A stretch of 20,000 nt of DNA from Rhizaria sp. SCN 62-66 (GCA_001724265.1 MEDY01000121.1:50926-70925), one strand, 5' to 3'; counted from the first letter of the stretch, positions 1 through 19,436 are shown. Numbers and translations: made by a program. Notes: generated by a model from the letters alone, not told the origin.

Positions 1-3000
1 CCCGTGGCGCAACTGCTGGCCATCGACCCCGCGCTCTACGATGCGCTGGCTGCGATGTCCCCGGCCGACGTGGCCGAGGTGTGTCTGCACATCAATAGCA
101 TTCTCGACCCCTCAACCGCGACGCCGCCCGCCCCCGCACAGCACCAGCAACAACAGCAGGAGGAGGCGGCTAGCAACGCCGCCCCCGCCACCACCGTGAG
201 TGACAAGAAGGACAAGAAGGACAAGAAAGACAAGAAGGGCGACAAGGCGGACAAGAAGGACAAGGATGACAAAAAGGACAAGAAGGACAAGAAGGACACG
301 TCGAGCAGCTCTAGCTCTAGCTCTAGCTCTAGCTCTAGCTCGAATGCCCCCGCGGCCGCTGCCTCTGCGTCTGCGCCTGCTTCCGCGGTGGACCCCCGCG
401 CGATGTGGATCAGCCTGCTCCGCACGGCCGCCGCGGCCGCCGGGCTGCGCGACTGCGGCTCGGGCTCATACTCGGTGCAGGAGCTGGTCCGCCTCAAGGA
501 CTTCCTCTCGGCGCAGCTCAGCCAGCACCATCACGCGCCCAACCCTCAGCTGCCCGGCAGCGCCGCGGGCGTCCTCACGGGCCCCTTCCTCGCCAGCGGC
601 CACGCCGGCAGCAGCGGCAGGGCCGGTCCGCACGGCGGCCGCAGGGTGAGTGGCGGCGGCGGCGCCGGTTACGAGTACGGCGGCTACCTGGCCCCGCCCG
701 GCAAGGCGCAGGCGCGCGGGCGTGGCCTAACTTCCAACGCCCCCAGCGCCAGCGCGAACAACAACAGCAACAGCAGCGGCAACGGCGCGAACGCTGCCGC
801 TGATCCCGCTGCCGCTGCCGCTGCGGCCGCCGCTGCTGCCGCCGCCGCCGCGGCCGCCGCTGCTGCCCAGAGCAATGCGGACAAGACCGACGCCGACGCC
901 GCCGCGGCCGCCATGGCCGCCGCCTCCGCCGCGGCCGCCGCAGCCGCAGCCGCAGCCGCAGCCTCCGCGGCCTCTGCCCCGTCCCAGTCCCAGTCCCAGT
1001 CCCAGTCCCAGCAGTCTCAGCAGGCGCAGGCGCAGGCGCAGTCGTCGCTGGGGCTGGTCCAGGGCCTGCAGGGGCTGCACCTGGCGCTGGCCGGTCCCGG
1101 TGTTAGCGCCCATGCGCCGCACCTCGCGTCCATGGCCGCCGCCGCGGCGGCCGAGGTCTCGGGCATTGCGGCCCTCGCGGCGTCCTACGGCCAGTCCGTC
1201 CCCGCCGCGGTCGCCGCTGGCGCCGGCGCCGCCGGCACCGCGAGCACCGCTGTGACGACCGTCACGGCTGGTACTGCCTCCGCTGCCTCTGCTGCTGGGT
1301 CTTCGCCGTACACGGTGGGCGGGCTGAATGTCAGTCTGGAGAACTCGCACCCGATGTTCTACACGCTCGCGCCCGACTTCCTCGTCCAGGAGTACCTCTT
1401 GCGCCAGGCCCGCCTCCAGGAGGCGCAGAACCTTGTACGTCGCACTTTCAACCACAGGCTATTTCTTTGATGGATTGCGTATTTTATCTTAAGTGGTGTT
1501 CATGATATTGTGTTAACCTACAATTTTGTAATATTATTCAGTTTCCTGCAGTTAGGTTATTTTATCTTGTTTGAACTCTTAACTCACTCGTGTCCGTGTT
1601 CTGTCTCTACTCAATGTTTTTTTCTCTCTTTCTTTTTCAGGCCGCGATGAACGCCGCGGCAGCCGTGGCCAACTCAAACGCCAGCGCGGGCAACAACTCG
1701 AACAGCAACAGCAACAGCAACGGCGCTGGTGCCGGCAGCAACGCTGGCGGCAACAACGCGGGCGCAGGCGGCAACGCCGGCGGAAACACCGGCGGCGGCG
1801 GCGGCGGCAACAACGCCGCGCTCTCCCGCCGCCCCGGCGCCAAGCCCTCTGCGGCGGCGGGCAGCGGCGGCGCGTTGGGCGGCGGCATGGGCGGGCTAGG
1901 GCTGGGCGAGGAGGCGCGGCGGCTCGAGGCCGAGGAGCGCGCGCGCCTGGCCGAGATCGCACGCCTCGAGCTGCTATCGGAGCTAGACGCCGAGGAGGAG
2001 GGCGGCCGCAAGGGCAAGGGCGGCAAGGGCAAGCGCAAGGGCGGACATGGCAACCAGAGCCACAACGAGGCTGCCTACGTCGCGCCTGCTGTCGAGCTTA
2101 CTGCGCAGGAGAAGAAGGCCGCCACCGCCGCGGCCGCTGCGGCCACCGCTGAGCGCGCCAAGGCCGAGGCCGCGGCTAAGGAGGCGGCGGCGGCGGTGCG
2201 CGCGCAGCAGCAGGCGGCGGCCGCCAAGGCCAAGGCTGAGGCCGAGGCCGCCGCCAAGGCCAAGGCGGAGGCCGAGGCTAAGAAGAAGGCGGCGGCCGAG
2301 GAGGAGCTCAAGAAGCGGCAGGAGCAGCAGCGCGCGGCTGCGGCCAAGGCTAAGGCCGAGGCCGAGGCTTTGGCGCGCGCTCGGGCAGAGGAGGACGCGA
2401 AGCGGCGCGCCGAGGCCGAGGCGCGGCGCGCGGCTGAGGACAAAAAGCGGGCCGAGGAGGCGGCGGCCAAGAAGGCCAAGGCTGAGGCTGAGGCCGCGGC
2501 CAAGGCCGAGGAGACGGCGCGCAAGAAGAAGAAGGCCGAGGAGGAGGCGGCCGCGGCCGCGGCCAAGAAGGCTGAGGAGGACGCCGTCAAGAAGCGCCGC
2601 AAGGTCGAGGAGGAGGCTGCGGCCGCCGCCAAGAAGGCCGCCGCCGCGACCGCAGCCGTCGAGGCTAAGGCCAAGGCTGAGGCGGCGGCCGCCGCCGCCG
2701 CTGCTGCTGCCGCGCCCGCCGCTGCCCCCGTCTGGGCCAAGATCGCCGCAGGCACCGCAGTCCCCGTCTCTATCCCCGCCCCCGCTGCCGCTGCCTCCGC
2801 CTCTGCTACAACGGCTGCCCTAGTTGCGCCTCTGGCCACCAAGTCGAGCAAGGCCACGAAGCCCGCCGACTCCGCCTCTGCCTCTGCCGCTGTCTCCGGC
2901 GCGGCCTCTGGCTCTGGTTCCGGGGCCAGCAGCGGCTCCGTCTCGGCCGCGCCGTCGCCGCCGCCCACACAGGCCTCGACCGCCGCCGCCACTGCCTCTG

Positions 3001-5585
3001 CTACTGCCACGAACACTGGCGCTGGCACTGGCTCTGGCACTCCGAGTAAGAAGGCTGCTGGCCCGGCTCCCGAGCCCGAGTCTGCTGATGCTGATGCTGA
3101 GTCATCTGCCAACACCGAGCCCGCCTCAACCAACGCCAACGCTGACTCTAGCTCGAGCTCTCGCTCCGGCTCTGGCTCGAGCGCTGGCGCTGCCGTCGAC
3201 GCCGTCACCGGCGCCGCGGCTACCGCGTCGATGGACGAGCGCCTGGAGGCGGTTCTCTCGCAGAACGCGCTGCTGCGGCAGCTGGCTGACAGCCTCGAGC
3301 GCAAGGTTCGGCAGCTCGAGGACCAGCTCGTCTGGGAGCGCCATTACCGCGAGGCCGCTGCGCTCAACAGCAACAACAGCAACAACAACAACGGCACTGG
3401 CGCGGGCTCTGCCTCGGGCGCCGGCACTGACTCTTCTGCTCCAGGTTCTGCCGTCGGCTCTGGCTCTAGCGCCTCTGCTGCCGGCGCCGTTTCAGTCGGC
3501 TCCGGCTCCGGCGCTGGCGCTGGATCTGGTGCCGCAAGCTCTGTGTCGGCGGTCGGCGACGGCCTCGGTGGCCTCGGCCTCAGCAGCCTCGGCCTCGGCG
3601 TCGGCGTCGGCGGTGGAATGGGCAGCATCGGCTTCGACCGGCTCGACGACATGCTTGGCGGTAGTAGCGGGGTCGCCAACGCTGGCAACGTTGCCCACGG
3701 TCACAGCGGTCCCCACGGCCTTCAGGGAGGCCCCGTCGGTCCCCACGGCCACATGGGCGTCGGCGACTCTCGCGGCGGCCATCCCGCTCACGGTCACCCC
3801 GCTCACGGTCACTCTGCCCACGGTCACCCCCACGCGCCCCCGATGCACCCTGCCCACGTTCACTCGGGCCTGAGCCTGAACCTCGGCGGCGTCGGCGTCC
3901 ACGGCCACAACCACATGCACGGTCCCCACGGCCACGGCCTCCACCCCGGCATGCACGGCGGCCACCTGCAACAGCAGCAACAGCAGCAGCAGCAGCAGCA
4001 GCCCCACCACATGCTGCCCCCGCAGCACGGCGGCCCTCACGGCCACGGCCCCCACGGCCACGGCCCCCACGGCCACGGCGGAATGCTTGGCATGGGCAGC
4101 CTCGGCATGGGCGGCTGGGAGGGTCTCTCAGACGCCAACGACAACGGCCCCGGCGGCAACTCCGGCTCGGCCGCCGGCAACAACACGGGCAGCGGCAGCG
4201 GCAGCGGCAGCGGCAGCGGCAGCGCGCCCGGCGTGGTGTCGCCGTCCAACTCTGCCGCCGGCGCCGGCTCCAGCGTGGCCGCCGCTGCCCGTCGCCCCTC
4301 GCTGCCCCCGTCGGCCGCCGGACCGGTCTCGGCCACCGGCGGCGGCGGCGGCGGCAGCGGCGGCAGCGGCTCGGATTCGGTGGCTCTCAGCAACCTCGGC
4401 CTGGGCTCTCTCAGCCTCGGCCTCGGCCCCGCCCTCGGCTCCAGCGCCGCCTCCACCGGCCTCAGCGGCCCCAGTGGGCTGACAGGTCCCGGCGGCCTGA
4501 CTGGCCTCGGCCTCGGCCCCTCTGGCCTGGGTGGCCCCGCCGGCCTCGGCGCCACCGGCCTCGGCACCAGCACCCTGGGCCTCGGCAGCGGCGTCGGCGT
4601 CGGCGTCGGCGGCGGCATCGGCGGCCTCGGCAGCGCTGCCAACCCAGGCTTCGGCATCGGCCTCCGCGCTTCGGCCTTCGGGCTCGACTTTTTCGGTCCC
4701 ACTGGCGCCATCACCGGCGGCTCCTCCGCGGGCAACAGCAGCGGCGGCGAGTTCGTGTTGGGCTCCCACGCACTGCCCCCCATGGGCGCCTCTACCGGCG
4801 GCCCCCACGGCCCCCACGGGTCTCACGGTACTCATGGTGGCCACGGTCACTCGTGGGCGCTGCTCGACCCCACGCATGCCGCCGCCGCCGCCGGCGCGGC
4901 CGCGGCCTCTGGCGGCAGCGGCTCCGGCCTGCTCGGCCCCAACAGTGGCAGCGGCAGCGGCATGATGGATAACAACGCCCGGTCGCAGTCGATGAACATG
5001 CGTCCCCCCAGCAGCGGCAACAACAACGGGCCCAACAGCGGGCGCGGGTCTTTCTCCGGCTCCGGCTCCAACAGCAACAACAGCAACAGCAGCGGTGCCG
5101 GCAACAACGGGAGCTTCGTCCTGGGCGGCGGCGGCGGCAATAACGGCCCCTACGGCGGCAACGGCGCGCTGCCGATGCAGATGCCGCCGATGACCGTCTC
5201 CATGAGCGGCAACATGGGCAACAACAGCGGCGGCCAGGGCGGGATGATGCCCCACCCGCTTGCGCACGGCCACAGCGGCCACGGCGGCCACGGCGGCCCG
5301 CACAGCATGCACATGCAGCAACAGCAGGGGCAGCGCGGCAACAACATGATGATGTCTGGCCCCCACGGCCCCCTTAACGGCCCCCACAGCGGCGGTATGA
5401 TGCACCCTCAGCAGCAGCAGCAGCAGCAGCAGGGCCAGCAGGGTCCGATGGGTGGCGACGGCAACATGATGATGTGGAGTAACAACAACGGTAGCAACAA
5501 CAGTGTCAACAACAACAACAACGGCAACTTTGCCCAGGGACAGCAGCAGCAGCAGCAGGGCCAGGGGAAGCCTGGTCGCCGCTAA
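1..5585 (+). CDS. 5'-truncated large low-complexity protein of unknown function; join(<1..1434,1641..5585), >1790 aa; KKD repeats, Ala/Glu/Lys coiled coil, short leucine-zipper-like helix, His/Gly/Pro-rich and Q/N/G/M-rich C-terminus
   Basis: Open frame from base 1 with strong GC3 bias. An AT-rich gap 1435-1640 is bounded by GTACGT and TTTTTCAG, phase 0 at both ends (...EAQNL|AAMNAA...). Stop TAA at 5583-5585. No catalytic domain recognised. Confidence 0.85.
202..340 (+). repeat. Coding tandem repeats: GACAAGAAG-like units (DKK) followed by TCTAGC units (poly-Ser)
   Basis: Directly visible 9-nt and 6-nt periodicity within gene 1 exon 1. Confidence 0.9.
1435..1640 (+). other. Spliceosomal intron (206 nt, phase 0)
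   Basis: GTACGT donor, CTCAC at 1583-1587, pyrimidine tract, CAG acceptor; frame preserved. Confidence 0.9.
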
Positions 5586-5618
5586 GCGCCTTGCCGTCTA
5601 AGCACCTTGCCGTCTAAG
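5582..5618 (+). repeat. 16-nt tandem duplication overlapping the gene 1 stop codon (CTAAGCRCCTTGCCGT, ~2.3 copies)
   Basis: ctaagcgccttgccgt / ctaagcaccttgccgt / ctaag. Confidence 0.9.
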
Positions 5619-6098
5619 TAGCTTGTTGTCGAAGTACCACTTCCAGCTTGTCACGTCAAGCTGTTGTTTGCTCGCTAAGATGCATTGCTCTCGGCTGTAG
5701 TTCCTCTTGCTGTCGATATAGAAGTGTCTCGTCCCTTTGTTGTTCTAACATCGGCGAGCAACACCGACTCTTCCAACACACACGCACATACGCACGCACA
5801 CAAAGAGACACACATTGCCTTTGATATACGTGTTTCATGCCATTTATTTGATATGACGAACGATCATATCCCTCACATAGTCCAGCTAAATATTGCGCAC
5901 GCTCAGTTCACTGCGCGCGCTATCTTTCACCTTGTCTACACTACGTTTGTTTTCTGTTTCACGTTTTGTTTTCACCTTTCCCCGTGACTGTCAAGAAATA
6001 CGCAGTCTTGGGGCTTTCATGGAGGACATTCGCTCCTCTAATTTACTTTACTACATCAAACACGTAGTAAATGACCGAGTATTTTAAGTAACATGACC

Positions 6099-6165
6099 TT
6101 TTTTTTTTTCTTTCGCTTTTTTTGGCTTTTTTTTTTTCTTTTTTTTTTCTTTTTTCTTTTTTCTT
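6099..6165 (+). repeat. 67-nt T-rich tract (poly-A-like on the minus strand)
   Basis: Nearly pure T with interspersed C/G, in the spacer between gene 1 and the TTLL gene. Confidence 0.9.
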
Positions 6166-7194
6166 GACCACGCTTTCAGGGGGGCAACTCCGAAACAATT
6201 TGTGACATGCATTTCAATACATCATTCCATGCTTGTTGGTCAAAACGATTCTCGCTTTATCCGCAATATAGCATCACGCATTGCTGTAACTAGCTTTGAG
6301 GGCGGCGCTTTTGATTGAGACGCTCTTGCTGACAAGATTCATCAAGTGTTTTTGCCCAGCATATCTCAAATCTAGTTTAATGTGATCTATATGCTGATGT
6401 GATTGTTCATGCGAAGCAATACTGTCCGTCGTTCGAGCACACCTTAGCTAGACCAACTTTAAGCATTTTTAAGTTGTCCTCACACCCTTCCCTACTGACG
6501 CACATTAACGATAAAAGCTCGGAGCAGCACAGCGCACTTATATCATATTAAGCGTATCACCAACTGATGTCGTACACTTTGTTTGTGTGTTCGCTTTTAA
6601 TGTCAATGCTTATAACGCTGCTCTTGTTCCGCATAACACTTCAGTTTATGCGGTGACAACTGACTCGATCTACTAATAAGATCTTGCTTGACGCAAGAAT
6701 AACAACGTGTTCTAAATAACATGCTAGATATTCAACAATATACCAAAAAATCAAGATGAGATATTGTAGTTGTAGTCATTTGAGGCGAAAGATGCACGGT
6801 GTGCGCACCAGTTACTCGTTCCTGGCTGCCACCCAACGGCCATGACCGCAGCGATGACGGACCGGGCAATTGCACTCTCGCCCTTGAAGAGCGCGTCGGC
6901 GCGAGTGGTCGGCACGCATTCTGGCGCCACAGAGCTTTATATCGGTTACTAATGACATTTTTTTACACGTGCACTTTTTATTTATAGATTGATTTCACCA
7001 CCATGTGCGTTCTATCACCTTTGCGCAGACTCCCAAATTCGCTAATTTTCCTGTCCGCATACTTCCTTCTCTTCTCTTCTGCACCAGACCTTCATCTTCA
7101 CTTTTCTATCTGCAAGTCAGAGCACAAGACATAGCTTTGAGTTTCATTGAGAAAACCGCACTTATTTTCTTCCAAGTCGGCTCTCTCGGCCACC

Positions 7195-9873
7195 ATGTCC
7201 ACCCCTCTGTACCTCGGGACGGGCGTGGGCGCACCCTCCGGCCCTAACAACGCAGCCGCAACGCCGGCCCCTGCGGCCGATGCTGACTCCGCCCTCAACA
7301 CCAGCACCACCAACGAGGTCGACGCGCTCCTCGCCTCTCTCTCTCCCCAGGGCTCGGTGACCGCGCAGAAGCCCATGAGCCTTAGCAGTACCGCCGCAAC
7401 TACTGCCGCAGCATCTGCCTTTTCCTCTGCCTCCGCGATTGCTACCGCCCCCGCCCCCGCGCCCGCCAAGAGCGGCGCCCTCGACTGCGATGCCGAAGAC
7501 ACGGCTTATACCCTGCTCACGGCCTCCTCTGCCTCCGCGGACGCGTCCTCGGTGCACATGCCCGCGAACGGCGACTACTCGCTGGTGCTGACGGAGCGCC
7601 GCCCCGGGCTCACGGCCGCGGCCGCCCTGCGCTTCGTCGGCCACGGCGCGCCCGCGCTGTCGCGGCCCGTGCGCGCGCCTGCGGCCTCGTTCTCCTCCAA
7701 GAAGGAATACGCGCACGCACGCCGCGCGGAGCGGCAGTTGGCGGCCGTCAACGACGCGCAGACGCGCGCCGCCGCGCTTAAGGGGCTCTGCAAGCTCGCG
7801 CGCACCACGGCCAAGGCCGCGTTCGCCCGCCTCTCCCGTAGTAACAACAGCAGCGCGGGTGTCATCACCACTGCTAACGCGAGCCCGAGTGGCACCGCTG
7901 CGCGCGACACGCCTTCAAGCGACGCGTCGTCGTCCTCATCATCATCATCATTATCGTCGTCGTCGTCATCGTCATCGCAGTCTGCTGCTGTGGCACTGCC
8001 GGCGGACGCGATCGCGGCTATCTACGCCGAGACGCACCGGCTCCGCGGCGAGGGCCTGCTGCCGCGGCCGGTGTGGGCTTACGGCGCGCCGTACCCTGCG
8101 GTGCAGGCGCTGGTGACGATGCACCCGCCGCCGCGCGTGCTGCCCGTCGGGGTAAGTGGCGACCCGCCGGGGTACTTACACTGTCTCGACCCCGTCGCCG
8201 CGATCGTCACCAACGCGGCGGCGCTCGCGCCCGCGGTCACGGCTGCGCTCAACAGCCAGCAAAACACTGCTACGGTCAGCAACAGCAACAGCAGCAGCAG
8301 CAGCACCACCACCGCGATTGCCAGCAATGATACCGACGCGGCTGTGGATGAGTCTGCCACCGCTCTTGTCCCCGCCGGTAGTAATGCCCTGAGCGCTTCC
8401 ACTGGCACCGGCGTGAGCGTGTCCGACTGGCTTTACGCGCTGCCCACCCAGCTCAAGTTCAAGGTCGGCGTCGAAACCTGCCGCTACTCGGTCGTGTGGA
8501 CCGCGCTCCAGAACGCCGGGCTCAGCGAGACGGCCGCCACGGACTGGGCGTTGCGCTGGGGCCGATTCCTCTCCCAGGACGAGGCCAAGGCCTTTGCGCG
8601 CTCCCAACGCATGAACCACTTTCCCGGTACGCTTACTCAATAACTACTAAAAATGTGGTGATATCTCTGTAGTGTTGATATTCCACCGAATTAATCTGCG
8701 TTATTCTGACAATCTGACAATTATTTTGCATTTTATACCGAACATTTATTCTCGATGTTGAATGTCGTTATGGCATCTAAACTCACATGTTCATCGACTT
8801 GTGTGTTTGTGTATCCCCCAAGGCATCTGGGCTTTGGGCCGCAAGGACATGCTGGTCAAGACCATCGCCCGCGCCCGCCGCACCCTCGGAAGCGACTACT
8901 TCCCTTACTTGCCCGAGACCTACACTTTACCGGCCGACGCATCGCTGCTGGAGGCCCGCATGGCCGACGCCGCGCGCTCCGCCGCACTCACACACTCTAA
9001 CTCTACCAGCAGCGGCAACGGCAGCAACGGCGTGCTGGTAGGCGGGGGCGTGACGTGCCCCGAGGCTGCGCTGCCGTTGTGGATTGCGAAGCCCGCGTCG
9101 TCGTCGTGCGGCCGCGGCATCCGTGTCGTGACCAAGTTTGCTGAAGTTGACCCCTCGCGGCTCAAGGCGCCCAAGGCCTCGGCCGCCGCCGCCGCCGCCG
9201 CCGCGCTGGCCGTGGCCGCGGACGGTGGCAGCGAGGCAGAGGCCGCCGCGGCGGGCACGGCGGCAGCTGCGGCGGCCGTGGCGGCGGCGCGTGGCAAGAA
9301 GATGGTTGTGTCGCGGTACATCGCTAACCCCTACCTCATCGGCGGCAAGAAGTTCGACATGCGCATTTACGTCTTCATTTCCTCGTTTTCTCCGCTCAAG
9401 GTCTACCTCTACGGCGAGGGGCTTGCTCGGTACGTATCACATGTAACATCGTTGCAAGAAGCAATGTTTACATGCAATTCATGTATATTCGTGTCACTGC
9501 ACTTGATTTAGCAGTGCATTCTCTTTATGGGAACTGGTTACTCACGCTTTTGATATTCTATTTGTTTGTTTTCTTTGCGCCATTTCAGCTTTTGCACGAT
9601 GCCATACTCTGCGTCGGCGGACAAAGACTCCCGCTCCGCGCGCTTTGCGCACCTGACCAACTTCAGCGTCAACAAGAAGAACGCCGCGTTCGTCAAGAAC
9701 CAGGACCAGGACAAGGCCGACGACGACGCCGACAGCAAGGACGCCGACGCGGAGGGAGAGGCCGACGCCGAGGTGGCGGCCGCGGTCGCCGCAGCGGTGA
9801 CCAAGAGCGGCAAGGGGGGCGCGGCTGCCGGCAAGAAGGCCAAGAAGGCGGGTGCGTTCGCTGCGGACGACCG

Positions 9874-9921
<48 letters not shown>

Positions 9922-12900
9922 CGACGATGATGATGACAGCAACAACAACGAAGAGGGCGACAACCTTGAGGAAAGCACCGACGGCACGATGACAACGACC
10001 GCTGGAAACACTACCGCTGCTGCTGCCGCGGCTGCCAGTGCCAATACGGATGTCTTCACCGGCGGATTGGCACCGGGCGCTGGTGTCAGGGGCAAGGTCG
10101 GCGTATGGGGAGACCTGTACCCTGGTACGTGTTTGACTCTAGATTTATTGTCGCAATACGACACAGTTAACTAAATATAGACGAAATGTATCCGAGGTAT
10201 TGCCATATCACGCAACGTTACGTTATTCACGATCGACTTGATGAAAACGGTTTGCTTATCTCTGCTCACTCTTCTGCTTTTTCGTCTCTTTTGTCCTGCC
10301 ATATTCACGCCCAGGCCGCCTGCGCTCCGGCCCCGACCCAGACCCCCGCGGCCTCTCCCCCAACAGCAGCAGCAGCAGTCATCGCCGCAGTGGCACTAGC
10401 TGCTCCCACCACTCCACAGCCGGCCTCTCGAAGCGCCGGTCCAACGCGACCCACAGCAACGCGTACAGCAACTACTCGGACGACAACTGCGGCGACTGCA
10501 GCAGCGGGAGTCTGCTCTCGGACGAGTCAGACTCGGACTACAACAGCAACGCTAACCCCTACACCGCGGCCACTGCCAACGCCACGGCTTCTGCGGGTGT
10601 GACCCACGGCCGCCGCTCAGCCGGCAACGCCGCCGCCACTGCTGCTGCTGCGGCGGCGGCGGCGGCGAGCGACGTCCCCGCCGACAAGGCCGCCGCGGCG
10701 GCGGCCGCGCTGTCGTCGCTTAAGGGCCTCGACTCGTCCAAGTGGCCGCTGACGGCGCTGAAGCAGTACTTCGCACAGGTCGAGGGCGCCACGGCCACGC
10801 GGCGGCTCTTCGCGCGGGTTAACGACCTGCTGCTGCGGACGGTGATCGCGTGCGAGGACGAGGTGGCGTCGCTGTCACTGCGCCGCGGCGTGCAGCCCGA
10901 TCAGAGCTTCGAGCTGCTGGGTTTCGACGTTATGATCGACTCGAACCTGACGCCGTGGCTCATCGAGGTCAACATTGGGCCCTCGCTGTCGGCGTCGTCG
11001 CCGCTGGACAAGCGCATCAAGACGGCGCTTCTGCGAGACGTGTTCAACCTTGTCGGCGTGCCCGTCGGCGGCGACGGCTCCGGACGCAACGCGCCCCCCG
11101 ACTTCGCGGCCGCCGCGGCCGCGGCGACGGCGCAGGCCAACAGGGACGCTGTCGCCATCAAGCGACTCAGGCTCGCAGAGTCCAAGGGGACCAACTTCTA
11201 CAGCGCCGTCAGTACCAACGCTCCCATCAACGCTGGCGCTGGCGCTGGCGCTGGCTCTGCAGGCGCTGGCAGCGGCAAGCGCGGCACCTGGGGTTCCGCT
11301 GCCAAATCCTCCAACACCGCCCTTGCTAACGCCGCCGGCGCGGGCGGCGCTGGCGCTGGCTCCCGCGCCGCCGCTGCTGCTGGCGGTGGCGCGGGTACGG
11401 TTGCGGTCGGCGCGGGCAAGGCCGGGCCCAGGGGCGAGGTGGGGGCCGTGGCGGCGGCGGTGGCCGCGCTCGAGTTCACGCCCAACGACCTCACGCTCAT
11501 TCGACAGGTACGCGTTGAGCTTGAAGCAAAACGCGAACAACTTGAATCAATTCTATTTTTAAATGCTGTAAACCGTGCTTGCTGCATACTTTATTAAACG
11601 TTCTATCACCACTCGCACTCATCTTCACTTCCACATAATCTCTTGTTTCTTTTTCGTCTCTGTTTCTTCTTTACTTCACGTCTCGCTCTCCCCCGCCCAG
11701 GTCGAGTTCGAGCACCTGCGCCGCGGCGCCTTCATGCGTCTCTTCCCGCACCCGGCGACGCACCGCCACTACGCGCAGTTCCTGTCGCCGCGCCGCCGCA
11801 GCAACCACGTGCTGCTGCGCTTCGCCCAGCTGCCGCTGCCCTCGGCGCTCGACCTGCTGGGCCCGCCCAGTGCCGAGTACTCCGACGCGGGGCTGCTGCT
11901 GACCTCATCGCTCCACAGCCACGCCAGCCACTTCACTGGCGGCTCAGCACAGGCGCAGCAAGCGTGTGCGAGTGCGAGCGCGGGCGCGGGCGCAGGTATG
12001 ATTACGACGGTCAGTGTAGCCGCGGTAGTGACTGCGCGCGCGGCCTCGGCTGCGGCCCGCCGTGCTCGCAGCGCCAACCTCAACAACAACAGTGGCCCTG
12101 GCGCTGGCGCTGGCGCTGGCGCTGGTAACGCTGCTGCTGCCACTGCTGCTGCAGCTGCCGTGCCTGCGGGGGCGAGAGACTCCGTCTTGCTCGCACTCTC
12201 GCGCAACAATAACGCCAACAACACTGCAGCTAATACCAACAGCAATGGCTACTACACGAGCGCGAACCCGTACAACAGCAACAACAACAGCAGCAGCAGC
12301 GGCAGCGGCAGCAACGCCGCCAACAGCGCGGGCGACGATAGTAATGGCGGCAACAACACCGGCAGCGACGCCGACGCCACTAGTCCGACCGTGGCCGCGG
12401 TGAACCATGCAGCGGACTCGACGGCGGCTGCTGCTGCTGCTGCGACACCGCCGACGACGGGCCCCTACGGCAGCGGCGGCATCAGCCTGACCGGCGGTAC
12501 CATGGGCAGCTCGATCAGCTCCGGCTACACACTGCGCTCGCGGCCGCCGTCCTCGTCCTCGTACTACAACAACGGCAACCGCGGCGTCGGGGGCAGTAGT
12601 CACGCTGGGCTGGGACTGGGGCTGGCCCACGGTCACGCTCACGGTCACTTTGCTGCCCACGGTCACCCCGCGTCCCGCGGCTCGGGCGCTATGGCCATGG
12701 CCGGCGCTGGCGCTGGCGCCGCGGCCGGGGCGGGGTGGTCTCGGCTGGCCGGCTCCGGCTCAGCCGCCGGCTCTCGGCCCGGGTCCCGCGGACTGGTCGC
12801 AATGGGCTCCGCCAACGCCAACGGCCTCGGCCTCGGACTAGGGGGCGTCAACATCGGCTACGGGCTCGGGCTCGAGACGCTCTCCCTGTCCAGCGGCGCC

Positions 12901-13620
12901 ACCAACGCGACTCAGGCGAGCGCAAGCGCAGGCAGCGCTGGCAGTCCAGGCTCCGGCGGCCCCCCGGCGCAGCCGATGCTAGTTGGCAACCGCGGCGGCG
13001 GGCTGTTGCTGGCGCCCGCGCGGCAGCTGCGACAGCGCGTCCTCGCCACCTACCAGCAGGAGGCGCTGGCCGAAACCACGGCCGCCGCCGCCGCCGCCGC
13101 CGCTGCGGCCGCCGCCGCGAACCGCGGGGAGGAGCTGAGACTGGCGCTCGAGGCCGCCGCGGCCGCGGGGTCGCCGGGCGAGGCCGCGGCGGCGGCGGCG
13201 GACGCTGCGGGCGCGCGGGGCCGCGCGGGCGTCGCGGCGCTGGCGCAGCAGCAGCAGCTACAGGCCATGATGTACACGAGAAACGCGGTTCTCATGCAGC
13301 AGCAGCAGCAACAGCAACAGCAGCAACAACAGCAGCTGCAGCAACAGAAGTTACTCCAGCAGCAGCAACAGCAACAGCAGATGCAGATGCAGACTCGCTA
13401 CGGACACCCTTGGCTGTCGCAGCAGCAGCAACTGCTCCAACAGCAGCAGCACCAGCTGCAGCATCAGGGCATGTCGTCCCTCAGTCTCGGCATCGTCGGT
13501 CAGGGGGTCAGCTCGGGCAGCGGCAACGGCGCCGGCGCTGGCGCTGGTGAGGGTGGCATGGGCTTTGCGGCGCCTGTGCCTGCCAAGAAACGCGCCGCTT
13601 TCCTCTCCGGCACGCGGTGA
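7195..13620 (+). CDS. TTLL4: Tubulin-tyrosine-ligase-like protein (tubulin glutamylase, TTLL4/TTLL5 class, closest to TTLL4); join(7195..8626,8823..9429,9589..10124,10315..11507,11701..13620), ~1895 aa
   Basis: GCCACCATG start. The spliced product gives ordered TTL motifs: [124 protein letters not shown], and the TTLL4/5-type EHLRRGAFMRLFP. All four intron phases match. The family call is firm; the subfamily and symbol are less certain. Confidence 0.92.
8627..8822 (+). other. TTLL intron 1 (196 nt, phase 1)
   Basis: GTACGC...CCCCAAG; CTCAC at 8782-8786; restores [13 protein letters not shown]. Confidence 0.9.
9430..9588 (+). other. TTLL intron 2 (159 nt, phase 2)
   Basis: GTACGT...TTTCAG; CTCAC at 9541-9545; restores GLARF. 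Confidence 0.92.
10125..10314 (+). other. TTLL intron 3 (190 nt, phase 1)
   Basis: GTACGT...CCCAG; CTCAC at 10265-10269; joins into the frame that encodes KWPL and FELLGFD. Confidence 0.85.
11508..11700 (+). other. TTLL intron 4 (193 nt, phase 0)
   Basis: CAG|GTACGC...CCCAG; restores LIRQ|VEFEHLRRGAF. Confidence 0.9.
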
Positions 13621-14042
13621 GCGGCAACACAATGAATCCCTAAACAACACGAGATTCAAGAACATATTTATAAAACGATAATGAATCCAAGAACAACTAT
13701 TTTTTTTCTTTTGTTGACCGTTAAATAAAACTTCCCCACTTTTTAACACAAATTAAAGTGTCTTTCAACATCATTTAATATTTGCTTGCATTCAGTGTCA
13801 GTGCAGAGTCTACTTCAGACACTTCAATTCAATGTGCATGTGTATTCATATTGCCGTCGCGACGATCATCATCACAGAACAGCGGCGCAGCTGGCCTTTT
13901 CTGAGGCCAATATAAATCTAAGTATGATGGAGGCAGAACAAATTCAAGACACACATGTCATCATCTCCAACTGACTGTGAGTATGATGTGACTGGCGGCG
14001 ACTGCGGCTTCCTGTGAGCCAAAGCGCAGAGCGTTATACAGC

Positions 14043-15717
14043 TCACTCGGCAAACGTGGCCCTAGCGCCGACAACGGGCCCAACGGCGTTGCTGTTGTTG
14101 CTGCTGCCGTAGTTGCCGAGCTTCTTGATGCCACCGCCAGCGGCACTCGCACTCGCCTGTTGCTGCGGTTGCTGCTGGTTGCTAAGAAGACTCAGGGGCA
14201 TGGTTGCAGCGCCAGCGGCCGCGGCAGCGCCGTCCTCGATAGGGAAGCGGGCCTCCTCGCGACCAGCCAGGCCAGCCTGTATGGAGAGAACAAAACAAAG
14301 CGAGAAAAAACATGGGAGATGCATAAGATGGCATATATGTGGGAATTTCAATGTTTCGAGTAGTGACGCACATAAGAAAGACGCCAATATAAGTTATATC
14401 ATAGCAATTCAACATTATATGCAGCGCCTATAGGCGATTACGAATTGGACAGCAATGGCGCTGAGATCCCAAGGTAGATCCCCAAGAGCGTATTTGAGCA
14501 TATTTTCATGAACGCCACTTGAAGTTGCATATGATCCAAAAATAACGCTTCCTGGATGCGCTATTATCGCTTTGGAATCGAACAAGTGTTCCCATTGGCT
14601 CCCGGTTCCATTCCTATCCAATTCGAAATCGCATAGAGACAAAAAAAGACTTCTGTTTCTTTCTGACAGCAAATATCACACGTACCTGACTGTAGTAGTA
14701 GCTGTAGAGCTCCTTGAGCGTCACGAACCCGGTCCCCGAGACGTTGATCGCGGCGAAGACCCCCGGCACGGCCTCCTTGGCGACGTGCGCGCCCAGCAGC
14801 GGCACGAACGCGGCGGCGACCTCGCTACGCGATAGCAGCCCGTCCCCATCAGTGTCTGCGGCGTGGAAAAGCCGCACGGCCAGCACCTTGAGCTTGCGCG
14901 CGGCGCGGCGGCGCTGGGCAGCGATGTAGCCGTTGTAGAAGTCGCTGAAGGTAATCTCGTCGCCGGACCGCGTCTTGCCGAGGCGCGCGAAGTAGAGCTC
15001 GACCTGCTCGGCGATCTGCTGGTCGTCGAGGCCATGTGTGAAGAGCATCTCGCCCAGTTCGTGCCGCGAGACCGTGCCGCTCGAGTCCAGGTCAATCAGA
15101 TTAAACTCAAGCTGCAGCTCCTGCACCGAGAGCGCGTCGACGTTGGCGCGGCGCACCAACCGCGGCGGGTGGCGCGCGGCAAAGGACTGCAGGTCGGTGA
15201 TGAAGATCACGCCCGTGTTGTCCTCGTCGACCTTGGCGAACACGTGCGAGACGAAGGCCTCAACGGCACGCGGCCGGTAGCCAAGGCGCGCGAGCGAGCG
15301 CGCAACGTCGGGCCGCGAGACGACCTGCGACGCGCGCTGCTGCTTGAGGTCGGCTACGAGGAGCTCGACGCGGGCCACCTCCTGCGCGCGCAGTGGCAGC
15401 GGCGTCGCGAAGAGAGTCGCCTGCACGTCGCGGTGCGCAACCTGCTCGGGCGTCAACTGCCGGTGCAGGCAGTCCTGGCAACGGATCCCGCCCGCGGGGA
15501 AGTGGCGCGCGCAGAAGGGCGAGGACTCGCGCGCCTTGGCCTCCTCGAGCAGGTCGGCAATCTTGGCGTCAATATCGGGCTTCTTGAACGGGTGGAAGTA
15601 GCTGATCTTCTTGCCCTGCATCGTGTCCTTGGCTACGCGGATCCACAGAAGGTCGATCTTCTTGCACCCCGCGCATTTGGGAACGATGCCCTTGTTGTGC
15701 TTCGGACAGCCGGGCAT
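14043..15717 (-). CDS. EF-hand calcium-binding protein with two N-terminal CHCC-type motifs; complement(join(14043..14276,14686..15717)), ~421 aa
   Basis: EF loops DEDNTGVIFITD, DLDSSGTVSRHE, DTDGDGLLSRSE and NVSGTGFVTLKE, plus two degenerate partners. CAG|GTACGT donor at 14685; pyrimidine tract and ACAG acceptor at 14277; phase 0. Exon 2 is low-complexity and ends in TGA at 14045-14043. Confidence 0.85.
14277..14685 (-). other. EF-hand gene intron (409 nt, phase 0)
   Basis: GTACGT...TCTCTCCATACAG on the minus strand; frame preserved. Confidence 0.8.
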
Positions 15718-16448
15718 GGGGGTTCCAGGGCCTGAGTGGTGTGTTGACTGGGAGGACTCTAGTAAACGGCAATCGGCGAGTAGACACAGTATTAGCAGCT
15801 TTGAGCGTATTAAAAGAAAAAAAGATGCGTGAAGACAATTTATTTCTGGAATTCACAAAAACTCTGCGAATAACGGATTCTGCGAGGTTGTAGCCGATGT
15901 GAAAGATGCCCCCCATTAGTAACCGTTGTTGACTCTGGTCGGTGGTGCGGTTTTGCGTTTGTGGTGGCTTGGGAAGTTAAGTCGGGTCGGTCGAAGACTG
16001 AGACCAACAGCTCTGGATGTGGTCGGCCTTGCGTCTGGAGCGATTTCGCGCTGAGTCTAAGCACTGGTTGAAATGTTATTTTATTATCAAAGTACTTCCA
16101 AGTGGATGCCACTTTCACTGAAGCCGCTAGCACATTAACGGATGTTTGATGGTGTTTAGGCTCGGTTTGTCGCTCGATGACGACCGCGGTCTCTCACATC
16201 GTTGACTCTCACTTTCTAAACCTCTAACATCTTAGAAATAGCCTGCGAGCAATCTGTTTCACGTCACACGCTTTAAATTACACTCATTCTACCACATATC
16301 GACGCTTATGTCTCACTGTCTGCTGTTATCGCCCGTTTGATTCACTCTTTCTCCTCCATCGCCGTCGTCTTCCCGTCCAGAACCCCTCTCTCCCGCCCGC
16401 GCTCTCTAGCCCCAGCCCTCGCTTGTTCCCCCGCTGCCTCTCTCCACC
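15718..16448. promoter_or_regulatory. Divergent (probably bidirectional) promoter/5'UTR region between the EF-hand gene and YIPF6
   Basis: Head-to-head start codons ~730 nt apart; lower GC; no credible ORF. Inferred from position only. Confidence 0.55.
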
Positions 16449-17512
16449 ATGGACAACCAACTTGGCGACATGGAGCTCGGCGTCATGGGCTCCTCCTCCT
16501 CCAACGTCGGCGCCGCCTCGCCCGCGCCCGCGCCCGCGTCGACCGTGAGCCTCGAGACGCTCGACGAGCCCGTCACCACCACGATCGTACGCCCCGCATC
16601 CCACCCCTGATCCGCAACAAAACGAGTTAAATCCCCGATATATCAAATGTCCTACGCTTTCTTCACCTACGAGTTTGGCATCGATTCTCTAAATATGCGC
16701 CCATCTCGCCGTAATCCTTGTTTCAGAACTCACCTCATGACACCTCTTATTCGCCGCCATTTCTCTCCGTCCCCGCGCCTTGCGCCCCCGCTAGGCGCGT
16801 GACTTGCGCCAGATCGGCCAGAAGATTGGCTACGTGCTGCTTCCGCGCCGCACTGACGCCTCGATGCGCGAGCTCCGCAACTGGGACCTCTGGGGTCCCC
16901 TCATCCTCTGCATGCTCCTGTCCGCCGCTCTGTACGTCCCGTGATCAAACACAAAACAAGATATATCTCGCGACGATTTCAATATATTGAAGTAGCTCTT
17001 TGACATTAAGTTAAATGGCATCTATTACATCACTCTTAGTTTTCATTGAAGTTGGCGAGAATCAAACACAACGGTGCTCCAATTTTCATACTCTGCTCAC
17101 TCTCGTCTGTCCTGTTTCTGTCCATATTTTTGTTATCCTTGCGGCTTCCCTGCTTAGCTCGTGGGGCAACAAGGAGCCCGGCGTGGTGTTTGCGGGCGTC
17201 TTCGTCATCGTCTGGGCGGGTGCCGCGGGCGTGACTGTCAACGCTGCGCTGCTGGGCGGCAAGATCTCGTTCTTCCAGTCTGTCTGCGTGCTTGGCTACT
17301 GCCTGGCACCGCTCAACATCGCTTCGCTCGCCGTGCGGCTGTGGAGCAACATCATCTTCCGCTTCGTCTTCACCGCTGTGTGCTATGTCTGGGCGACCCG
17401 CGCGTCGGTGGGCTTCATGGCGCAGCTGGTGCCTGATGACCGCAGGTTCCTGGGCGTGTATCCCGTCGTGCTCTTCTACTTCGTCATCGGCTGGATGATT
17501 CTCGTCAGCTGA
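16449..17512 (+). CDS. YIPF6: Yip1-domain Golgi membrane protein, YIPF6 (yeast Yip4)-like; join(16449..16586,16795..16931,17158..17512), 209 aa
   Basis: CCACCATG start. Motifs TLDEPVTTTI|ARDLRQIGQK, ELRNWDLWGPLILC, VTVNAALLGGKISFFQSVCVLGYC and YPVVLFYF; five hydrophobic segments. Exons 1-2 are missed by the ORF track. Confidence 0.95.
16587..16794 (+). other. YIPF6 intron 1 (208 nt, phase 0)
   Basis: GTACGC...GCTAG; CTCAC at 16729-16733. Confidence 0.92.
16932..17157 (+). other. YIPF6 intron 2 (226 nt, phase 2)
   Basis: GTACGT...CTTAG; CTCAC at 17096-17100. Confidence 0.92.
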
Positions 17513-18035
17513 AGTGAAGATATTGCGCGACTGCTATCAATCAGGCGCGATCTGATGCTGCTGGTGGGCGTCTCCAAGCCGCGTCTCCACAGAACGGCGA
17601 TTCAGAACGTTCTATCAAGTGATGACGCTGGCAAATGTAGGCGTGCGTGCAGGGGAGTATCAGCTCGTGGCAAGTTTCGCAAAGCTGTTGTTTAGTATTT
17701 CTATTGAAGTTGTGACTGTGTATTGTGTGTCATTGTACTCGCTAGTATTCGTCTCTTTATTAAAGCTATTAGCAAAAACAGGCCATTCATGGTGCTATTC
17801 TCGCTGCAAGCAAGCACAAATACAGAAGAGGATATAGTTATTCCAATTACGAATCCCTTCTCGGAACAACAAAGCAAAACTCTATATTAACAATTATATG
17901 ATGTATTTGACACTTTCAGGACTTTCTCTTATTTCATATCATCAGAAACAAAAACCGAGATAACACTCCTATTTTAATCCGGCCGGCCCTTTCGAGCTCG
18001 CTTTCACAGTGTTTGCCTGTTCCGTTCGCGGCCGC

Positions 18036-19436
18036 TCACTGCCAAAGGTGGGGGCGGTACGTCGAGTAGATGGCCTGCTTGCTGCCGATGCTCGTCTTGC
18101 GCCGCTTCTGCACGCGCGCCGCCTTGGCCCGCGCCTGCCGCTCGGCCACGATCAGCTTGATGCGTGCCTCGCGCTCGTCGACCTTGCGCCGGAGCCCCTC
18201 CTCCCATGTCTCACGGGCCATCTTCGCCGCCGCGGCCTCCGCGCGAGACGTCTCGTCCTCGATCTTCCACGGGTACAGTTCCTCGCCCTCGTCGTCGTCC
18301 TTGGCAGCAACAGCAGTAGTAGACTTGGAGTCAGTCTTCAGGCTTGCGATCTCACCAAGATCATCGTCATCATTGTCGTCGTCGTCGTCGTCGTCGTTAA
18401 CGTCCTCGTCCTCTTCGTCCTCGTCGTCGCTGTCGCCCTTGTGGCCAGCTTTGGAGGTCTTGCTGGCAGCGGCGGTGGGCTTCTTGGTGGCGGGGGCAGC
18501 AGGCATAGTACGCTTGTTGTTCGCAGGCTTGCTGTTGCTCTTGCTGTTGCTGCCTGAAATAAGGCCGGCCTCGCGCATCGCCTCCATCTCGTCCTCATCC
18601 TCCTCCTCGTCTTCGTCAGCCTCAGAGTCAGCATCAGCCTGACTGTCATCCTCGTCCTCGTCCTCCTCCTCGTCGTCGTCGTCTTCGTCAGCGTCGGCGT
18701 CGGCGTCGAACTCAATCTCAGCGTCCTCGTCGTCATCATAGTCATCACTGCCGTCCTCGTCATCGTTGGCCTCGGAGTCGGAGTCGGACGCGAGCTGCTG
18801 CGCGTGGAGCAAGAACTGCTTCACGAGGTCGTCCTTGACGCCGCCCAGCCCCTTGGACAGGTCCACGGTCACTCCATCATCATCGCCGTCCTCCTCCTCG
18901 TCGTCGTCATCGTCGTCATCGTCGTCGGAGGAGTTGGCCTCGCGGACCGAGTAGGACAGCCAATCGCCACCCTTCTTGCCGCTCGCCTTGGTCTTGGCAG
19001 CGGCGACAGGGGCGGCAAACTTGCCCCCCTTGGAAACAAGAGCAGCAGCTGCAGCCGCCTTCGACAAGGGCTTGGTGGCAGCAGCGGCGGGCTTGGCGGC
19101 GGCGGCAGCGGGCTTGACAGCAGCAGCGGGAGCAGCAGCAGCAACAGCCTTGGAGGGCTTGTTGGGGACGGCGGCAGCGGCAGCGGCAGAGGGAGCCTTC
19201 TTAGCAGCAGGAGCAGGGGCGACGGCGGGCTTGGAGCGGGCCTTGGGGGCAGGCGCAGCAACGGGAGCAGCCTAACACAGCAACAATAAGAAAGAATATA
19301 TGAAAATAAAGTAAGTTTGCAAGGAAATAAAGAGCGAGTGAGGAGAATAGATGACGTCGTAGGCTTTATTGCGTACCTTAGAAGGATGGGCCTTTTGGGC
19401 CTTAGCAGGAGTAGCGGCAGACTTCTTGGAAGACAT
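18036..19436 (-). CDS. Lys/Ala/Pro-rich and Asp/Glu-rich disordered protein, probably nuclear or nucleolar; complement(join(18036..19271,19377..19436)), ~431 aa
   Basis: Exon 1 encodes MSSKKSAATPAKAQKAHPSK, then AAG|GTACGC; GTTAG acceptor at 19272, phase 0, in frame with ORF 18036..19067. Long acidic tracts; basic C-terminal helix with KRRK. Confidence 0.85.
19272..19376 (-). other. Gene 5 intron (105 nt, phase 0)
   Basis: GTACGC...TGTTAG; CTCAC on the minus strand at 19342-19338. Confidence 0.88.

Follow-up and report, generated by a model that had tools for sequence, protein, structure and literature searches.

A GTACGY donor consensus with C at +4 in nine introns of a GC-rich contig from an uncultured eukaryote

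Few lineages are known in which the consensus of the intron donor has moved off GUAAGU, and whether the small nuclear RNAs (snRNAs) follow that shift, as in Entamoeba and Mastigamoeba, or do not, as in yeasts, Giardia, Thecamonas, and Mamiellales, is a question in spliceosome evolution. According to the preprint by Roy and Bowser (bioRxiv 10.1101/2022.06.08.495308), the donors of Thecamonas trahens favor C at +4 alongside a standard U1, five Mamiellales use GYGCGY donors with a standard U1, and Mastigamoeba balamuthi combines GUGCGC donors with a U1 reading ACGUAC; Entamoeba, with GUUUGU donors, has a compensated U1 (ACAAAC), whereas donors with U at +4 go together with an unchanged, standard U1 in sixty-nine Saccharomycotina, in Giardia, and in Trichomonas. 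A further study links the A/U switch at +4 in yeasts with the disappearance of METTL16 and SNRNP27K (Parker et al., eLife 2023, PMC10581693). The Mastigamoeba genome, at 60.7% GC, has 3.4 introns of 137 bp per gene (PMC8136499), and that of Thecamonas has 55-65% GC and many GC-rich simple repeats (PMC6387519). Here, we analyzed a 20,000-nucleotide stretch of DNA (the window; GCA_001724265.1, MEDY01000121.1:50926-70925, deposited as Rhizaria sp. SCN 62-66), in which nine introns, I1 to I9, all begin with GTACGY and so carry C at +4.

Throughout the window, GC-rich stretches of 64-73% GC, with 76-89% GC at third codon positions, alternate with AT-rich stretches, and five genes can be read, with nine AT-rich introns lying within GC-rich exons (Table 1). 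A preliminary description of this DNA had claimed nine GTACGY donors, with C at +4 in nine out of nine, and every one of them was found where it had been placed, five of them with T at +6 and four with C. Over the window as a whole, the hexamer shows no enrichment, with 12 copies against 14.9 expected from shuffles. Nine of these 12 are the first six bases, on the coding strand, of AT-rich islands that interrupt the five frames, and the other three (10461 on the minus strand, 18057 and 18508 on the plus strand) lie antisense to exons. Excision of all nine introns yields five frames, each with a terminal stop only. A composition scan of the window found no further AT-rich island inside any coding frame; therefore, the nine are the full set of coding-region introns here. 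The seven plus-strand introns have 34-53% GC. The exon side of the donors is weak (G at -1 in six of nine, AG in three), and the acceptors are CAG in five cases, TAG in three, and AAG in one. By our own arithmetic, nine out of nine places the one-sided 95% lower bound on the true GTACGY share at 72%.

The best evidence that GUACGY is recognized as a donor comes from the exons. Over 14,259 coding bases, sense-strand GTACGY is absent, against 6.35 copies expected when codons are shuffled (none of 400 shuffles was as low) and 2.1-4.6 expected under 3-periodic Markov models of orders 1-3 (Poisson P 0.01-0.12). On the antisense strand of the same bases, three copies are present against 3.1-6.5 expected. 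The sense pentamer GTACG occurs twice, against 5.4-11.9 expected, and both copies have G at +6 (Table 1). Sense GTRAGT is not depleted, with three copies observed against 0.9-1.6 expected. A loss of GTACGY specific to the sense strand is the pattern expected from selection against cryptic donors and implies that the splicing machinery reads GUACGY, the hexamer purged from sense-strand exons. The absence of sense-strand GTACGY from exons is what is new at this locus.

It had also been argued that canonical-looking donors in the exons are ignored. Their positions and their location inside uninterrupted GC-rich frames held (Table 1), and that they are ignored is read solely from frame continuity and homology; for example, if 8152 were joined to the I2 acceptor, the phase would shift and the transcript would lose a conserved motif of the tubulin-tyrosine-ligase (TTL) family that lies downstream of 8152. 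The point is true at the level of the frame but weak as evidence, with three GTRAGT copies against roughly 1-1.6 expected, and because the exons of any eukaryote contain GTRAGT sites that go unused.

Four of the nine junctions (I2, I3, I5, and I6) are fixed to the base by homologues or a Pfam profile; the other five rest on frame and composition. At I2, a homologue (P0006) aligns contiguously across the junction, its residues 190-252 ending at 8631 and 251-398 starting at 8822, and splicing rebuilds the conserved TTL motif (NHFPG then ..RKD) at the start of the domain. The Pfam TTL profile spans I3, with positions 19-141 matched before it, in exon 2, and 143-182 after it, in exon 3, and this intron contains an in-frame stop at which the frame 8762-9511 terminates. 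A relative that is 87% identical in the TTL core (P0031) reads through the I5 site without an intron as ..LVRK VEFEY.., matching the end of exon 4 (..LIRQ) and the start of exon 5 (VEFEH..) in the window. At I6, where the window splices ..YSQ / AGL.., all four related proteins (P0002-P0005, 72-45% identical; P0005 less clearly) are uninterrupted at ..Q/E AGL.., as is L001, a 2,006-nt intron-less relative found among the matches listed in a metagenome scan for further DNA of the organism. Among the remaining junctions, I8 is flanked by matches to the Yip1 profile in exon 2 (5-33) and exon 3 (65-173), with the unspliced frame stopping at 16990, and I9 joins a 20-codon first exon to a 411-codon frame at 18039-19271. 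Within 40 nt on either side, no alternative frame-preserving GT has a hexamer like any known donor consensus.

A second recurrent element lies toward the acceptors. CTCAC is present once each in seven of the nine introns, with its A 37-67 nt from the acceptor, and the stretch from the motif to the acceptor is free of AG and 65-82% pyrimidine. None of 5,000 shuffles placed CTCAC in seven introns. T-rich pentamers do reach that count by chance, and the argument for CTCAC, therefore, rests on its position and on the AG-free zone. No canonical CTRAY is found between CTCAC and the acceptor in these introns; I5 has CTCAT and I6 has no close match. We regard CTCAC as a putative branch motif, which together with the pyrimidine tract would provide the branch site and tract of U2-type introns. 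In the literature on branch points, CTCAC/CUCAC was found only as one among many human variants. The distance of CTCAC from the acceptor is unusually large. In four introns, the motif extends to ACTCAC, the reverse complement of the classical donor GTGAGT, so that minus-strand GTGAGT lies inside introns. The two introns without exact CTCAC, I5 and I6, are also the two that are absent from relatives.

Judged by these features of their sequence, the nine islands are major-type (U2-dependent) GT-AG spliceosomal introns. Minor introns of the U12 type have an extended RTATCCTT-type donor and a branch site close to the acceptor. That class was rejected here, as the donors are all GTACGY followed by variable bases and the branch-like motif lies 37-67 nt upstream.

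We conclude that GTACGY is a real, transformed donor consensus of this organism and probably one that is lineage-wide. Our best explanation as a whole, which we judge to be about evenly balanced between right and wrong, is that this transformed GUACGY consensus is read with a standard U1. An uncultured, GC-rich, intron-sparse eukaryote would have shifted its donors to GUACGY, in introns that would also bear a branch motif of the CUCAC type and, after it, a long run of pyrimidines ending in a YAG acceptor, as a property of the spliceosome of the whole lineage and as the same phenomenon as the +4C donors of Thecamonas, Mamiellales, and Mastigamoeba and the +4U donors of budding yeasts, Giardia, and Trichomonas. 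The U1 5′ end would still be the standard ACUUAC, as in most transformed lineages, pairing at +1 to +3 and at +5 (and at +6 if this is U) with the mismatch at +4 tolerated. What selects for C may then act at a later step, on transfer of the donor to the ACAGA box of U6 and the proteins around it, and the sharp GC contrast between exons and introns may help intron definition. No snRNA was found in the window at E<=1. The earlier proposal of splicing tuned to a +4C donor is borne out by the nine GTACGY donors and the sense-only absence of the hexamer from exons, but it is not a new principle, since +4C is known in three lineages, one of them with just the kind of compensated U1 that the proposal envisaged; a U6 change and altered METTL16 or SNRNP27 are the other candidate causes that it named. 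The contrast that it drew with intron-poor genomes was overstated, as nine introns in 14.26 kb of coding sequence, or 0.63 per kb, is sparse.

Several observations weigh against this reading. The sample consists of nine introns in five neighboring genes of one 20-kb locus, and the exon depletion is marginal under the strictest null (order-3 Markov model, P = 0.12). The relative L001, 73% identical, has a sense GTACGC inside an intact orthologous exon (1096-1101), and therefore the hexamer alone is insufficient in that relative. RNA reads from four runs, aligned to the whole window at 92% likeness, gave no spliced junction among the 15 joints shown out of 298, all of which were low-complexity repeat artefacts. 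Three contigs from a polyA library (records 12-14) run unspliced into or through introns, at 9415-9672 (collinear across I3), 13998-14311 (into I6), and 16177-16608 (into I7). The analogy with Mastigamoeba would also make a compensated U1 a live alternative to the standard one.

The window uses a different codon at the site equivalent to L001 1096-1101. Because the cover of the intergenic spacer in the same polyA library is near zero (bins 6004-7337), its unspliced contigs are probably unspliced RNA rather than DNA, and intron retention or slow splicing at I3, I6, and I7 is possible. A contig from a cDNA library (record 30) ends exactly at the I6 donor, 14685, which is the one hint of splicing in these data. 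A divergent contig with pieces ending 1-3 nt from exon 2 of gene D may be spliced RNA or the DNA of a relative and supports neither side.

The alternative that survives best is that the same consensus is read by a co-evolved U1 with the 5′ end ACGUAC, pairing perfectly with GUACGU, as the preliminary description had suggested. Such a U1 is reported for M. balamuthi, and that of Entamoeba is likewise compensated (bioRxiv 10.1101/2022.06.08.495308). Five of the nine donors here are exactly GUACGU and four are GUACGC, and exons that avoid GTACGY and not GTRAGT would follow if GTACGY were the site with which U1 pairs best. The genome statistics of M. balamuthi are also similar, its spacers being 1.3 kb (PMC8136499). 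Against this, the preprint gives a compensated U1 in only one of the three described +4C lineages, the Mastigamoeba donors are GUGCGC and not GUACGY, its genes have 3.4 introns each (PMC8136499), and protein searches gave no sign of an archamoebal affinity, with a stramenopile and Thecamonas providing the best named TTL matches. Habitat adds no support, since microbial-fuel-cell runs contain small shares of the window's words only. Prokaryotic genome contigs, among which mis-binned eukaryotic DNA might occur, were also searched for a variant U1 (an ACGUAC-type 5′ end plus a stem-loop I motif); the 120 matches were all bacterial chance hits, none of which had both an Sm-like site and a loop II motif. 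Because one of three +4C lineages is compensated, and with taxonomy allowed for, we consider a co-evolved U1 possible but rather less probable than a standard one.

A more far-reaching version is a doubly retuned code, in which U1 would be paired to GUACGU, a branch reader (U2 or a branch-binding protein) would prefer CUCAC over CURAY, selection would purge exons, and intron gain would be ongoing; we hold this combination to be doubtful. If true, co-evolution between snRNA and splice site at +4C would have a second and independent example, an environmental one.

It is very unlikely that the uniformity is an effect of sampling, in which case donors across the genome would vary in a GTRNGY-like, degenerate way and GTACG would be no more than frequent among them, as it is in some fungi. 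The sample is small and from one locus, and GTACGT is a minority donor in fungi. Yet at a true share of 50%, nine out of nine has a probability of 0.002 by our own arithmetic, the introns span five unrelated genes on both strands, and the hexamer is purged from sense-strand exons.

A recent origin of all nine introns by copying within a single mobile introner family, with ends shared by descent, is more improbable still. Introner elements are mobile intron families of Micromonas, Aureococcus, and others. Like them, the introns here are lineage-specific, of similar length (six of nine are 190-226 nt), and differ in presence or absence between relatives, the lack of I5 and I6 from close relatives pointing to recent intron turnover. 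Unlike introners, they form no sequence family. All-against-all BLAST of the nine introns gave a best match of 13 nt, in branch and pyrimidine regions, no target-site duplications were found in the nine (the longest in-register shared run, 5 nt, is splice consensus), and there were no terminal inverted repeats (at most seven of 10 matches). Because shared sequence, target-site duplications, and terminal inverted repeats are all missing, the uniform ends were not inherited from one element. The evidence favors a recent gain of I6 in the window's lineage, since four of four related proteins (72-45% identity) lack it. The hardly credible proposal that the contig comes from a GC-rich pandoravirus-type giant virus, with its genes spliced by an amoebal host, has in its favor that pandoraviruses are GC-rich with spliceosomal introns, but 7.5-13% of pandoravirus genes have introns, at ~1.2 each (PMC5995976), against five of five genes here with four introns in one, the genes are of cellular housekeeping type (TTL-family ligase, Yip1, EF-hand), the spacers reach up to 1.6 kb, and two scans of viral contigs found no relative of the window.

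Table 1 Genes, introns, and short motifs in the window, with coordinates counted from its first base
Feature	Gene	Coordinates	Strand	Description
Gene A		1-5585	+	5′ end open; nearly all low complexity
Gene B		7195-13620	+	TTL-family protein, 1,895 residues
Gene C		15717-14043	-	EF-hand protein, 421 residues
Gene D		16449-17512	+	Yip1-domain protein, 209 residues
Gene E		19436-18036	-	Acidic protein, 431 residues
I1	A	1435-1640	+	206 nt, 34% GC; GTACGT...CAG; joins frames 1-1434 and 1641-5585 without a stop; from frame and composition
I2	B	8627-8822	+	196 nt, 36% GC; GTACGC...AAG; junction backed by homologue
I3	B	9430-9588	+	159 nt, 37% GC; GTACGT...CAG; junction backed by Pfam profile
I4	B	10125-10314	+	190 nt, 41% GC; GTACGT...CAG; in low-complexity insert of TTL domain; from frame and composition
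I5	B	11508-11700	+	193 nt, 42% GC; GTACGC...CAG; absent from close relative
I6	C	14277-14685	-	409 nt; GTACGT (14685)...CAG (14277); lacking in all relatives compared
I7	D	16587-16794	+	208 nt, 53% GC; GTACGC...TAG; needed for 209-residue frame; from frame and composition
I8	D	16932-17157	+	226 nt, 39% GC; GTACGT...TAG; Yip1 profile on either side
I9	E	19272-19376	-	105 nt; GTACGC (19376)...TAG (19272); from frame and composition
CTCAC	A	1583-1587	+	In I1
CTCAC	B	8782-8786	+	In I2
CTCAC	B	9541-9545	+	In I3
CTCAC	B	10265-10269	+	In I4
CTCAC	D	16729-16733	+	In I7
CTCAC	D	17096-17100	+	In I8
CTCAC	E	19338-19342	-	In I9
Exonic GTACGG		675-680, 11395-11400	+	Sole sense GTACG copies in exons; both G at +6
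Exonic GTGAGT		196-201, 646-651	+	Canonical look-alike inside uninterrupted GC-rich frame
Exonic GTAAGT		8152-8157	+	Canonical look-alike inside uninterrupted GC-rich frame
Exonic GTATGA		11996-12001	+	Canonical look-alike inside uninterrupted GC-rich frame

At least 90% of the window's sampled words are present in public runs labeled as bioreactor or wastewater metagenomes, one of which may have given rise to the assembly, and one third in a polyA metatranscriptome; the window is therefore a contig of an uncultured eukaryote. A scan of prokaryotic genome contigs found no further DNA of the organism. Protein searches with the EF-hand gene and the TTL exons gave no assignable affinity by which to place the lineage. 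All protein matches to the TTL exons of gene B are at most 50% identical except for one close relative (P0031), and the best named ones, from a stramenopile and Thecamonas (a Thecamonas TTLL4 among them), are both ~49% identical in the TTL core. A search of 5.8 billion proteins gave four relatives of gene C, all metagenomic, and an Atlas search with the EF-hand protein gave generic EF-hand clusters only; gene C thus appears, from its sequence, to be a lineage-restricted calcium-binding protein.

Low complexity encoded by simple repeats (Ala, Gly, Ser, Asn, Gln, and His-Gly runs) dominates genes A and B, and long inserts interrupt the TTL domain of the latter. In gene C, a cysteine-rich N-terminal part is fused to EF-hand pairs (14686-15717, minus strand). 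The 1.6-kb spacer that separates genes A and B contains a T-rich tract of ~70 nt (6101-6170). The relative's orthologues of the EF-hand and TTL-family genes (P0002 and P0031) are probably on one 6,646-nt contig, and the order of genes B and C is probably conserved there.

As a principle, +4C donors have already been described in Thecamonas, Mamiellales, and Mastigamoeba, and this locus is a further case, from an uncultured lineage. Full-text searches of the literature listed no paper on a lineage with a GTACGY-type donor or a CTCAC-type branch consensus apart from bioRxiv 10.1101/2022.06.08.495308. An invariant GUACGY, which is the exact complement of the one known variant U1, together with purged exons would make a clean further test case, and its significance would rise if U1 or the reader of the branch site proves to have co-evolved. 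The organism would extend the METTL16/SNRNP27K story from the A/U switch to C. On the practical side, gene finders trained on GTRAGT will mis-annotate such contigs, and correct gene calls would be obtained from a model that combines GTACGY and CTCAC with the GC contrast.

Set beside the known systems, the locus resembles Thecamonas in C at +4, in a lineage that the preprint counts among those with massive intron loss (bioRxiv 10.1101/2022.06.08.495308), and in being GC-rich with GC-rich simple repeats (PMC6387519). Unlike the CTCAC here, canonical branch motifs are common in Thecamonas according to the same preprint. This likeness refers to the stated +4C preference alone, with the donor logo left aside, and at ~49% identity in the TTL core, an affinity is unproven. 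The Mamiellales (Micromonas, Ostreococcus, Bathycoccus) share GC-rich exons and CGY at +4 to +6, but they have G at +3 and are marine picoalgae, whereas the introns and spacers here are strongly AT-rich.

The +4U lineages (Saccharomycotina, Giardia, and Trichomonas, with GUAUGU) are alike in having a near-invariant donor, a base other than A at +4, and few introns, and in them, as here, the base at +4 lies opposite the central A of the ACAGA box in U6 (PMC10581693). C at +4, however, cannot pair with that central A, and the work on the A/U switch, in the part of PMC10581693 available, does not treat C. Entamoeba, the model of co-evolution between snRNA and donor, is likewise an intron-sparse protist whose donor has been transformed and is nearly universal, but with U at +3 and +4 and AT-rich genomes. 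Mastigamoeba shares with this locus C at +4, G at +5, and a pyrimidine at +6, as well as a GC-rich genome in which non-coding DNA is shorter and lower in GC. The two differ at +3, which is A here and G there, and in intron density per kb, which is about four-fold lower here, yet the variant U1 of Mastigamoeba is the exact complement of the GUACGU donors in the window.

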